From contig OZ024755.1 of the NCBI GenBank assembly GCA_964016885.1, positions 37,076,001 through 37,140,000 of the forward strand: 64,000 bases of DNA. Reading direction: 5' to 3'. The notes under the pieces are model-generated. The model ran no database searches. It was not told where the DNA came from and saw only the letters and a program-made list of their open reading frames with translations. This document shows, one piece after another, positions 3,619-63,099 of this stretch. The position numbers and the translations under genes were made by a program. Source of the stretch: Eledone cirrhosa (taxonomy: Eukaryota). Position 1 is the first letter of the stretch. Every line of letters begins with the position of its first letter.

Positions 3619-3851
3619 AACGAAGGAATTGTGGTAAGGAACCAGATAGACCATAACGTACCAGAGTACTCAATACTTAGGGTAGTAGAGTAGGTAATAG
3701 GAAAAAGTATGACCACGACGGCAGAGCTCAAGCCGTTTCGTCGGCTATTTCTGGACCCAACTTCACATTTTTCTCTTCTTTAATATACTCAAGTCCAGAA
3801 ATAGCCGTCGAAACGGCTTGAGCTCTGCCGTCGGGCTCATACTTTTTCCTA
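3619..3851. mobile_element. Family C fold-back element (hammerhead 3' half on both arms)
   Basis: Long minus arm 3619-3756 and short plus arm 3793-3851 meet in the stem II loop with a ~36-bp filler, flanked by (TA)n. Confidence 0.85.
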
Positions 3852-3863
3852 TATATATATATA

Positions 3864-4236
3864 GTAATAATAATAAATGTGAAGACTAAAATCAAAAGAG
3901 GGCTCGATAAGGATAAATATATATCAAATATATAAGAACCCTAGAGCAAATATTTTTTTAAATAACAGATTAAAGTTTAAGCAAAGAATCGCTGCTTTCA
4001 CCCTTAACGGGATCTTCTGAAATTGAAAAAAATCAATCTGTGGACGCAGAAGTAAATATTTCGAAAAACGTTGCAACCGAAGGAAAACAGGAAGACGAAC
4101 CGAAGTATCGTCTTCCTGTTTTCCTTCGGTTGCAACGTTTTTCGAAATATTTACTTCTACGTTCACAGATTTTTGTTTTTTTTTTAGTTTCAGAAGAAAG
4201 CAGCGATTTTTTGCTCAAACTTTAATCTGTTATTTA
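3864..4236. mobile_element. Large fold-back pLTR-like element
   Basis: Near-perfect palindrome 4036-4170 (loop ~4098-4108), outer arms 3958-4030 / 4175-4236. The tail 3864-3955 recurs at 5017-5140. Confidence 0.7.
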
Positions 4237-4526
4237 AATAAATAAATAAATAAATAAATAAATAAATAAATAAATATATATATATATATATATATATATA
4301 TATATATATATATATATATATATATATATATATATATATATATATATATATATTATGAACGTATTAGGGTCAATCCCACTCTCCAAAAAGTAGAACATAT
4401 TTATATAATTACAGTGTATGCAGGTTGGAGCACTCAACGAGTGCGCAGGCTGGTCTGTTTACTCCGGAGTAAAGTAAAAAGAAGTGTAAGTCAAAAAGGT
4501 AAAATTAGCTTCGTTTATTCATATTC

Positions 4527-4585
4527 GCTGTTATATATATTTCAGTGATAGTCATTAATCAACAGTTATGACTTCATCAGACAGT
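4527..4585 (-). ncRNA. Type I hammerhead motif, family D
   Basis: Reverse complement reads ACUGU-CUGAUGA-AGUCAU..AUGACU..-GAAA-UAUAUA-UA-ACAGC. Relative of 23634-23688. Confidence 0.65.
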
Positions 4586-4740
4586 AAGAACTTGAACAGA
4601 AAAACAGGCAAACATAATGTTGTAATAGATTTTACCTTGTTAATTCATTGATATGAATTTTACCCTGTTGACTTACACTTCTTGTATATATATATACAAT
4701 GATATTAAATAAATGGAAACTATATTTATAAAACCATATT

Positions 4741-58920: not shown

Positions 58921-59256
58921 GCCACCATCAAGAGAGGTGGATTGGTAGTTCTTAGTTCAAAGCCTGCTTAGGTCAGCACACAATTTCACCCTTACCCGAT
59001 ATAATAGTCACATGGGCCAAGGACACCAGACGTCTCCACTGCATCAATGATGGTAAGGGAGATGCGCTGGAAGAGCCATTCCATCTGGCGAAGCTCACAC
59101 CTGCGGATGGCCATCGCAGCGCCTATCGTGGTGAGTAAAAAGAACGAGTGAGCAGCATTACAGTAGTATTAAACAGCGAAGTTAGTCATGACAAACAATA
59201 TGATTTAGTTTGGATAAACGGATTTCTTTTTCTGGTGTATTGTAAGCGTGCGTGTA

Positions 59257-59640
59257 TACGAAGGAGTGACTTTAGAGCTGTGAACTAGTGCATACTTTAC
59301 TTTCATCTATTTTTATTAACAACTGCAGTGTTTCTTTCCAGTTAAACTGATCTGACTGTTCAAAGAAGACTTCAAAAGTAACTAGTAGTGATTTCTCTTG
59401 ACAAGGTATAACATTTGGCATTGTGGTTTTATCTAGTATCTGCTGACAAAGGGTTTAGCCCCCAATGACATTAATCCCGACATGGTTGCTACGTTTGGGG
59501 ATGATGTTCCTGCTTTATCAACAATGCAAAAGTGGCCGGCTGAATTTAGTTTGGACGTCCTGCAACTGCCACCACCAAGGAATACATTAATCATGTCCAG
59601 AAAATGGTGATGGATGGCAGGCGATTGACAATAAATCAAA
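59257..59640 (+). pseudogene. Old mariner remnant
   Basis: TACGAAGG-type end and HTH-like YLLTKGLAPNDINPDMVATFGDDVPALSTMQKWPAEF. Confidence 0.6.
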
Positions 59641-61544
59641 TAGCCACTGTTATTAGAGAGAGTGGTGGATTGGCAGTATCAGTAGAGGGTCGGACGCCAT
59701 GCTTTCCAGCATAGTTACGTCCCCTTACGATCTGAGTTCAAATCCCGCCGAGGTTGACTTTGCCTTTCATCCTTACGGGGTCGATAAAATAAAGTACCAG
59801 TAATGCACTGGGTAATTGCTGGCCTTGTGCCAAAAGTAGAAACAATTATATATATATTAATAAAAGGAATTCCAACTTTGTCTGATTTACTCGTTTTATT
59901 TACAATCCTTTAACATTTATAATGGTATTAGAATGAAATAGTATGGTAGAATATTAAATGTTAAGTGTTAATTGAACAAGTACTTTCATGCTTTCGCAAT
60001 CTTCAGGTTCATATTGTGTGGTGACAGTCAAGTTTGCAATTTTCAACTGTATATATATATATATATATATATACACACACACTTATATATATATATATAT
60101 ATATATATATATATATATATATATATATATATATATATATATATATATATATATATATATATATATATATATATATATATATATATATATATATATATAT
60201 ATATATATATATATATATATATATATATGTGTGTGTGTGTTAAGTTTGTACCTTTGAAATATATATAATAGAATAAATATGGTTTTATAAATATAGTTTC
60301 CATTTATTGTGGATTGGCAGTATCAGTAGAGGGTCGGACACCATGCTTTCCAGCATAGTTACGTCCCTTTACGATCTGAGTTCAAATCCCGCCGAGGTTG
60401 ACTTTGCCTTTCATCCTTACGGGGTCGATAAAATAAAGTACCAGTAATGCACTGGGTAATTGCTGGCCTTGTGCCTAAAGTAGAAACAATTAATATCATT
60501 GATATTTTACTCCAGAAACGCTGTCGAGTGCTTCGAATCAGTTATAAATTTATATATATTTGTTGAATTAAATATCCCTTATGCTTATATATATGTATAT
60601 ATATATATATACATATGTATATACATATGTATATATATATATATATATATGTATATATATATGTATATATATACATATATATATATATATATATATATAC
60701 ATATATATGTATATATATATGTATATATATACATATATATGTATATATATATATATTATATATATATATATATACATATATATGTATATATATATGTATA
60801 TATATATACATATATATGTATATATATATGTATATATATACATATATATGTATATATATATGCATATATATACATATATATGTATATATATACATATATA
60901 TATATATAGATATATATGTATATGTATATATATATATATATATTATATATATATATATTTATACATATATATATGTGTGAGTGTGTGCGTGTATTTGTAT
61001 GTATATATGTGTATTTGGTGAAAAATAGACAAACAAACAGGCGACAGAGTAAGAAAATATTTGTAATTATATGACAGTCCGTAATATCTCATCATATAGT
61101 TTCCTAATTTCCACAGCTTTTTCCCCAGATATAATGAAAAATAGAGAGAAGCCTCAGGTAAATGCTTGCAACATCCATTACAAATAAATATATGGATTCA
61201 ATGAAACTCCAGTGATACACATATTAAAATCTTCCTCTCATAGAAGACTGTTATTCACCAGGAGAGCACTAGGACGTCTTATTCCCTATAATGAAATAAA
61301 GCCGGTGTAGGATATAACAGATTTAACGACTAAAGGGACGTAACGAGTTTCTTCTTCAATGTATTCTGACTCTTTGTATGATTACATCAACTAATTTTAT
61401 ACAAGTGGCTTAATCTATGTTATATAATTACTTGCACTTAGTTTATCTACAGTGGAATGATGGCAAAACAATTAAAGCCTGAAGGTATTTCAGCCAAGAC
61501 ATTGGAAGAAAACTAACTAAATATTGCAATAGATTATTTCAGAT

Positions 61545-62083
61545 GCGGTGGATTGGCAGTATCGGTAGAGAGTCGGACGCCATGATTTACAGCATAGAGT
61601 TACACTCCTTTACGGTCTGAATTCAAATCCTGCCGAGGTTAACTTTGCCTTTCATCCTTACCAGGTCGATAAAATAAAGTACCAGTCACGCACTGGGGTC
61701 GATTTGATCGACTTTCCCCTCCCCATAAATTACTGGCCTTGTGACTATGTTAGAAATCATTATGAGATCAAATCCCGCCGAGGTTAACTTTGCCTTTCAT
61801 ACTTACGGGATCGATAAAATAAAGTACCAGTAATACACTGGAATAATTGCTGGCCTTGTGCCAAAAGTAGAAACAATTATTATATACTATTAAGGGCGGT
61901 GAATTGACAGTATCGATGGAGGGTCGGACGCCATGCTTTCCAGCATAGTTACGTCCCTTTACGATCTGAGTTCAAATCCCGCCTAGGTTGACTTTTCCTT
62001 TCATCCTTACGGGGTCGATAAAATGAAGTACCAGTAATGCACTGGGTAATTGCTGGCCTTGTACCTAAAGTAGAAACAATTAT
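61545..62083 (+). mobile_element. Tandem cluster of three SINE family 1 copies
   Basis: Copies at 61545-61762 (long variant), 61770-61880 (truncated) and 61893-62083. Confidence 0.88.
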
Positions 62084-63099
62084 TTATAATAGATTATCCG
62101 TCCTAGGTACTAATATGCAGCTTAGCGTTTTAAGTGGTGATGCTATCAAGACAGACCAGTCACGGACAGGCCTCATTATCGTTATTCCCTCTCTTGAGGT
62201 ACATATTAATCTACACACATACACACAACCCACTCTCAAGCGTGAAACTAATACTATTATCATTTGTACTGCCTCTCTGTTTTTTGTTCTCTGTTTATTT
62301 ATTAAACTATATATATATGTATATATATAATATATATAATATATATATATATATATATATATACATACATACATATATATATGTATACTTAATTATGTAT
62401 ATATATATATATAACGAAGGAAATGTGGTAAGGAACCAGATGGACCATAACGCACCAAAGTACTCAATACTTAGGGTAGTAGAGTGGGTAATAGGCACAA
62501 GTATGACCCCGACGGCTGAGCTGAAACCGTTTCAACGGCTAATTCTGGACTCATATATATATATATATATATATATATATATATATATATATATATATAT
62601 ATATATATATATGTGTGTATACTTAATTATGTATATATATATTTCGTTTGAATTATTGGCAACATGATCCTCCAAAGCATAACAATATATATATATATTT
62701 GTATAGATATATATGTGCATATATATATATATATATATATATGTGTATATATATATATATATATATATATATATATATATATATATATATATATATATAT
62801 ATATATATATATGTGTGTGTGTGTGTGTGTATGTATGTATTCATATATATGTTCATATATATATATATATACATATATATATATATATGTATGTATTCAT
62901 ATATATGTTCATATATATATATATATATATATATATATACATGTATGTATAATGTATAAGTACATATATATGTATATATATATGTATAGATATGTAAGTT
63001 TGTGTCGACTATTGTGTTACTATTTGTAATTAGTTATATCGCATCAAAAGACAGCAAATCGCCAGATAAGAATGGGTGCACAATATTTCATCTCTATTC

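Follow-up and report, generated by a model that had tools for sequence, protein, structure and literature searches.

Short two-armed copies of a Penelope-like element in Eledone cirrhosa end at a fixed site within the hammerhead ribozyme and point to two primings on a probably capped RNA

A stretch of 64,000 nucleotides from the genome of Eledone cirrhosa (GenBank assembly GCA_964016885.1, contig OZ024755.1, positions 37,076,001 to 37,140,000 of the forward strand; hereafter the window) contains short, often palindromic copies of a hammerhead ribozyme sequence. They derive from the 3' end of a Penelope-like element (PLE). The explanation that we favour, with a probability of roughly 0.7, is that each insertion is built from two complementary DNA (cDNA) arms, which are primed on both sides of a (TA)n break at two fixed internal sites of the RNA and stop at its likely capped 5' end. 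Breakpoints cluster at two spots, likely because cDNA synthesis ran off RNA ends, namely a probable capped start and the predicted ribozyme cut. The initial annotation of the window, which named eight copies that lose their 5' half at about the same place in the stem II loop and a ninth that joins in stem III, had instead proposed that ribozyme structure dictates the stop. All nine copies are present where they had been placed, between (TA)n runs.

In the numbering used here, +1 is the first A in AGTCCAG, on the 3' edge of hammerhead loop II; the predicted GUC cut follows +41, and arms have fixed 3' ends at +61 (B) and +140 (A). The sample comprised 1.664 Mb, of which 1.344 Mb were chosen blind to junctions and 0.32 Mb, five C1 blocks taken from a hit list, were kept separate from the blind set; figures for all blocks cover both. 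From this sample 199 arms were collected, 22 of which have non-standard 3' ends and were excluded from the hazard table. Thirty loci selected by likeness to a G-starting copy were excluded from breakpoint and junction-G counts, and their long arms were used as references and for the tally of templated -1 bases. Solo copies were counted by eye among the first 100 rows listed per search after removal of duplicate rows. Repeat-finder output for the window was dominated by microsatellites.

In the junction-blind set, 64 of the 68 arms that reach +6 end within -6 to +6 (p about 1e-66), and over all blocks 99 of 111 arms (89%) do so. The stop hazard in this interval is 0.168 per nucleotide, compared with 0.001-0.007 further 3', where stems I, III and II are passed, and none of the 12 arms that extend past -6 ends in the rest of loop II (-32 to -7). 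The stop is a one-sided edge at the 3' end of loop II, with no loop-wide zone. Mapped onto the secondary structure, breakpoints in the sample are thus non-uniform; the proposed clustering in loop II holds far beyond chance (64/68 in 12 nucleotides), but it is confined to the 3' end of the loop. The edge recurs in the same register across subfamilies (45/68 in f1, 48/62 in f2 and 17/22 in f3), one of which has an unrelated loop II sequence. Among exact +1 arms genome-wide, represented by 26,181 matches to one exact 25-mer, only 5,619 match the template up to -10. The sequence at +1 is TCAGTC, TTAGTC or TTAGTT, a conserved TYAGTY motif that we take to resemble the arthropod initiator.

Insertions with long arms show that reverse transcription can pass this site. 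The partner of a long arm stops within -6 to +12 in none of six sampled and none of 14 selected cases, and all 17 partner arms that reach the +1 site go through. There is no per-pass stall at +1, because the partners of long arms never stop there (0/20). The stop is set once per insertion, whose arms share one length class, short or long.

The edge is also marked by an extra base. A G directly precedes +1 in 14 of 77 solo loci, compared with 3 of 93 starting at +3 to +5 (among the matches listed; p=0.0015), and in f3 it does so in 9 of 27 solos (among the matches listed; p=6e-5). The -1 base of long arms is G in 0/23, so the extra G is untemplated. At full-length junctions of L1, an extra G reflects copying of the mRNA cap (PMC11702581, available text), and by analogy the G before +1 looks like cap copying.

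A second, smaller peak coincides with the predicted cut. Of the solos starting within +38 to +47, 25 of 64 start exactly at +42 (among the matches listed; p=8e-10), with four, three and three starts at +43, +44 and +45, respectively (same matches), and three further +41/+42 joins occur among 20 tandem-junction copies described below. Among the listed +42 solo starts, 1 of 29 has an extra G. Since +42 is the 3' product of the predicted GUC cut, these starts suggest a self-cleaved RNA end.

The anatomy of the insertions accounts for their palindromic shape. Of the 199 arms, 177 end at +140 (A, n=90) or +61 (B, n=87), both at TAT and adjoining TA repeats, with at least three TA units directly after 64 of the 90 A ends and 68 of the 87 B ends. 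There are 76 close tail-to-tail pairs, 61 of them A+B, and long, kilobase-scale insertions are built on the same two-arm design, short copies being about ten times as common as long ones. Minor 3' ends between B and A (about +85, +96 and +101), some adjoining TAT, were seen at L099 and in blocks R075 and RWIN.

The junctions of the 76 pairs comprise 30 with overlaps, 10 blunt and 36 with fillers, and 74 are distinct, as expected from the earlier proposal of independent events. Fillers had been noted as well; some are partly templated, since 9 of the 16 fillers of at least 8 nucleotides contain a match of at least 8 nucleotides to the element. Within 20 of the 61 A+B pairs, the arms are non-nested, the B arm reaching at least 10 nucleotides further upstream than the tail-bearing A arm, and in 8 of the 61 the arms lack any overlap. 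Non-nested junctions fitting one exact pattern number 498 genome-wide, and 4 of 14 long pairs are non-nested. The arms of a pair belong to the same subfamily in the 43 pairs compared, with a mean of 3.0 differences within pairs and 7.5 between them; therefore, both arms come from one RNA or one source. Of the two joining routes proposed initially, two cDNAs primed from both sides of a TA break is retained.

Long relatives that extend upstream show a full type I hammerhead, including the 5' half missing from the short copies, which confirms the placement of the breaks in loop II. Its parts are stem I, a YUGANAA core with U3-A8, stem II with a loop of about 35 nucleotides, GAAA, a stem III of 5-6 bp, and GUC. 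Core position N7 occurs as T, G, C and A. Across eight close copies, 93% of stem cells are paired, with zero double changes; in stem II of f3, A-U replaces G-C, as judged by eye. Minimum-energy folding gave the hammerhead fold in 1 of 5, and an Rfam scan of the window returned no match. The hammerhead and the TA target of the initial annotation are both supported. In part of f1b (L206, L093 and L095), a C3-A8 mismatch takes the place of U3-A8 and may weaken predicted cleavage. At window positions 40491-40806, at L099 and at two further exact-pattern junctions, the hammerhead has lost internal segments between short direct repeats.

The parent unit is about 3.5-3.6 kb long and encodes a reverse transcriptase (RT) with a C-terminal GIY-YIG-type domain, with the hammerhead located in the pseudo-long terminal repeat (pLTR). 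A natural frame of 731 amino acids carries FDIESYY/YRDDG and VIY..AYIG motifs, and Atlas look-alikes, at 0.96-0.99, have HTH_animal, GIY-YIG and RVT_1 domains. A local Pfam search with P0001 and three homologues matched no relevant family, and a solved-structure search gave no match below E 0.27. The protein has RWR (in the N-terminus of L091), DKT at 125, CNCPDRSSC (a CxCx5C linker) at 580, CNLC (CxxC) at 678 and CKH (CxH) at 706, each kept in 105-117 of 120 homologues. These motifs match the description of the Hydra clade of PLEs with a C-terminal endonuclease (EN+) in the available text of PMC8557442, and point to assignment to that clade. Long relatives were found for every subfamily examined.

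Tandem copies show the pLTR continuing into the 5' untranslated region (UTR), with the ATG at +232. Within the inferred 5' UTR, the tail region holds an upstream frame of 13 codons whose ATG is at +104 (L091:5327-5368). There are 310 exact tandem pLTR junctions, some of which form arrays of four spaced 3.54 kb apart; the tandem counts given here come from the first 20 rows outside arrays. Head-to-tail arrays with 3-4 junctions at about 3.54-kb spacing lie at G000:C1:91476610-91487262, C1:437200348-437210966 and C2:320551593-320558706, as expected for circular or multimeric templates, and a junction spacing of 257 bp was seen at C1:27009639. The PLE architecture of partial tandem pLTRs, an inverted 5'-truncated copy and a tail at one end is present in all its parts. 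The 42 insertions in 23 blind 40-kb blocks amount to about 46 per Mb, or roughly 1.4 x 10^5 genome-wide; only the 23 blocks fetched first were used for this density because the blind set takes in neighbours of dense blocks.

These observations can be assembled as follows. From a promoter in the upstream pLTR, transcription of a capped RNA would begin within loop II, at +1 in the TYAGTY motif and 231 nucleotides before the ATG. Lacking the 5' half of the ribozyme, this RNA would not cut its own 5' end, and short copies would span GUC because the half-ribozyme of the +1 RNA is inert. The initial annotation had read the span as an uncleaved or religated template. The span itself stands, but an RNA starting at +1 could not cleave, and a minor class starts at the cut site. 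The element protein, probably a dimer, would cut both strands and prime at the 5'-proximal +61 and +140 sites. Run-off would follow after 61 and 140 nucleotides, and end joining would trim and fuse the ends of the two cDNAs. Long and more-than-unit copies would derive from read-through, multimeric or religated circular RNAs, and the +42 class from hammerhead-cut RNA.

Several observations weigh against this explanation. Some arms extend to -2 to -6 or to -13, so that the start would have to be a cluster or the extensions chance matches, and conservation of the TATA-like word at -30 does not extend to f1b or f3. Among the 20 tandem-junction copies, 11 run through loop II and only three stop near +1 (at +4, +7 and about +13), and at the selected long loci all five more-than-unit arms go past +1. 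Full-length copies would therefore mostly not derive from a simple +1 mRNA, and a second template class, longer or circular, must be assumed for the more-than-unit copies. Taken by itself, the difference between +1 and +42 in the frequency of an extra G is non-significant (p=0.06) and at most suggestive. Among about 96 paired junctions, 14-19 fall at +42, but microhomology confounds this peak; the cut-site test was therefore redone on solos. Penelope of D. virilis has its start upstream of its hammerhead (PMC2377424, PMC4209133, available text), whereas the start proposed here splits the ribozyme. Start site, cap and cleavage are all read from DNA junctions.

The nearest competitors keep the edge at +1 and explain it otherwise. 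A folded ribozyme, or a bound protein acting like a telomerase template boundary, might block reverse transcription in loop II. Such a block would fit the constant distance of 17-18 nucleotides between the stop and the downstream GAAA core in all subfamilies, the three hairpin-centred joins among 76, and the location of +1 within the 3' strand of a weak predicted distal stem II helix in f1b, f1c and f2, which also tells against a transcription start. We nevertheless consider it quite unlikely, since RT crosses stems I, III and II with little loss, every partner of a long arm that reaches the site passes it although most arms overall stop there, and the loops of f1a and f3 have a different predicted fold yet stop in register. 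A block also predicts no untemplated G specific to +1. The lack of partner stops, the cap-like G and the shared register despite different loops thus speak against the initial claim that ribozyme structure dictates the stop. Alternatively, short copies could be their own masters, with an internal promoter and an RNA resembling a short interspersed nuclear element (SINE) that is mobilised in trans by the PLE protein; the edge would then be a capped 5' end, though not the one of the full-length mRNA. In its favour, Penelope has an internal promoter, at -2 to +46 relative to the start (PMC2377424, available text), short copies outnumber long ones, and few more-than-unit copies start near +1. This account is unlikely, given that each subfamily examined has long relatives, that arms at L242, L243 and L245 end near +1 yet continue past +140 toward the ATG, into 5' UTR absent from short copies, that the anole PLE RNA required sequence 3' of the start sites (PMC11167929, available text), and that junctions are not inherited. 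As a separate observation, L243, L245 and L256 each have an arm ending at about +4, +1 or +42 fused to +203, +231 or +215, respectively, of the 5' UTR of another copy, as if RT, on reaching the 5' end of one RNA, had switched to another.

Snap-back self-priming, in which one cDNA folds back and copies itself into the inverted arm, was the other joining route of the initial annotation and has been proposed for the palindromes at PLE junctions (PMC3846280, available text). The shared subfamily of paired arms agrees with it; among the 43 pairs compared, two arms from different subfamilies, the other outcome considered initially, were not seen. Hairpin-centred joins such as 18704, which does join in stem III as first described, suit it too; there the join could be a snap-back or two cDNAs annealing at a self-complementary site. 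Snap-back requires nesting and is not the main route because arms are so often non-nested (the 20 short and four long pairs above); it also leaves the solo copies that stop at +1 and the fixed +61 end unexplained. It is refuted as a general route, for which we hold it very improbable, and is possible for about 5% of joins. A single amplified palindromic master resembling a miniature inverted-repeat transposable element (MITE), or assembly artefacts in TA-rich DNA, could be suspected from the palindromic shape and about 10^5 copies, but can hardly explain distinct junctions, asymmetric arms ending at fixed PLE sites, or the recurrence of this design in insertions of kilobase length; the single master with one identical junction was not seen. 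The candidate of a MITE, with one master, an identical interior and terminal inverted repeats, is ruled out by the distinct junctions and asymmetric ends. A non-LTR retrozyme, with head-to-tail units and a complete hammerhead in each (bioRxiv 10.64898/2026.07.22.740005, available text), was rejected as well: the short copies are arranged tail-to-tail, and the 5' half of the core is missing from them.

Compared with known systems, the element resembles Hydra-clade PLEs as described in the available text of PMC8557442 in RW(R), DKT, CxCx5C, CxxC and CxH around conserved E and N, in the pLTR hammerhead and in (TA)n insertion. In contrast, its unit of about 3.5-3.6 kb exceeds the length of generally <3 kb given there (Craig et al. 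2021, PMC8557442), and a population of two-arm insertions of about 200 bp with a fixed 5' stop is not among the features described in that text. An inverted partner arm, a tail at one end and partial tandems are shared with PLE insertions in general, whereas the tail here is 79 bp rather than 30-40 bp, truncation is non-random, and arms are often non-nested, in contrast to published self-priming (PMC8557442, PMC3846280, available text). In vitro (Frangieh et al. 2024, PMC11167929, available text), the Poseidon PLE of Anolis has two internal RT starts that define the tail, and it cuts and extends both strands; its product length tracks the RNA 5' end. Its hammerhead is dispensable in vitro and no RNA-seq reads are reported to end at the cut (same source), whereas here genomic junctions peak at the predicted cut. 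The start sites here, unlike those of Poseidon as described there, lie in the 5' UTR at TAT, which might base-pair with the target. L1 likewise primes a second cDNA from the other DNA end, its complete 5' ends carry an extra G, and its joins show microhomology and fillers (PMC11702581, available text). It differs from the present case in that here both primings occur at fixed internal sites and are the usual outcome, and the arms mostly overlap, giving palindromes. The start site inside the pLTR has a counterpart in D. virilis Penelope, with its initiator-type internal promoter in the pLTR (PMC2377424, available text), and the U3-A8 core variant is known from other PLE hammerheads, for which close opposite-strand hammerheads were also noted (PMC4209133, available text).

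The copies of the window are listed in Table 1.

Table 1. PLE copies in the window, with arm limits in element numbering
Feature	Window positions	Strand	Description
Two-arm insertion, f2	3620..3852		A arm - (3756-3620) from +2; 35-nt filler; B arm + (3792-3852) from +1
Non-nested pair, f3, absent from earlier list	9184..9323		A arm - comprises +71..+140 only; 13-nt templated filler; B arm + comprises +2..+59
Two-arm insertion, f1	9535..9762		Arms start at about -3/-3; 22-nt A/T-run filler
Two-arm insertion, f1	16400..16589		A arm - from +7; B arm + from +5; overlap 1 nt
Two-arm insertion (copy 18704)	18703..18842		Starts +22/+22; 19-nt overlap centred on stem III hairpin
Short B-arm fragment, f3	25005..25034	+	Spans +30..+59
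Two-arm insertion, divergent subfamily f3	32771..32962		B arm - from +4; A arm + from +1
Two-arm insertion, f1	37475..37672		Starts +5/+5; 6-nt filler
Solo B arm, f3	37745..37802	+	From +2; adjoins (TA)n
Long B arm, absent from earlier list	40491..40806	+	Includes 3' UTR and the complete hammerhead core, with an internal deletion in loop II; 3' end at +61
Two-arm insertion, f2	41123..41315		B arm - from +8; A arm + from +2
Two-arm insertion, f2	55475..55662		B arm - from +9; A arm + from +3
Solo A arm	62412..62552	-	+1 to +140, between (TA)n runs; untemplated G precedes +1

Long T runs directly upstream of +1, corresponding to A runs at the cDNA end, were seen at window positions 9678-9699, at L025 and L166, and in blocks D201, D209 and D229; they reflect either slippage on a U run or untemplated dA addition. 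An unrelated second dispersed repeat of SINE-like size occupies 34511-34929 and about 20 further sites in the window (e.g. 14955, 29422 and 57735), including one 209-bp tandem pair. Tandem arrays lie at 35086-36615 (44-bp unit), 44397-44714 (15-bp), 45839-46354 (107/197-bp) and about 52450-53200 (39-bp).

Inverted repeats and tails of PLEs, pLTR promoters, U3-A8 hammerheads, two RT starts in vitro, and the twin priming and cap G of L1 are already known. A search of mostly open-access papers found no report of a fixed 5' stop with a cap-like G in a PLE hammerhead or of a junction peak at the cut site. Nor did it find population evidence against PLE self-priming, and the supplements of PMC8557442 may hold related Hydra families. 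The origin of PLE inverted repeats and tails and the role of the hammerheads are named as open questions in the available text of PMC8557442, PMC4209133 and PMC11167929.

On these questions, the family offers independent junctions by the tens of thousands, which speak against general self-priming and for two primings per insertion, show a peak at the predicted ribozyme cut that is absent from the RNA-seq of the anole PLE, and predict the start site with single-base precision. Since PLE RTs and telomerase are sister groups, the priming of PLEs is of wider interest. A broader scenario is offered tentatively, at somewhat short of even odds. By starting inside its own hammerhead, the element would disarm the copy at the 5' end of its mRNA, while downstream copies would cut and religate into circular or multimeric templates for full-length elements; one RNA would undergo two primings, one from each end of a (TA)n break, and about 10^5 mini-palindromes would form a fossil map of 5' ends. 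If this is true, the map would provide in vivo evidence of PLE ribozyme cleavage and would settle the origin of PLE inverted repeats.

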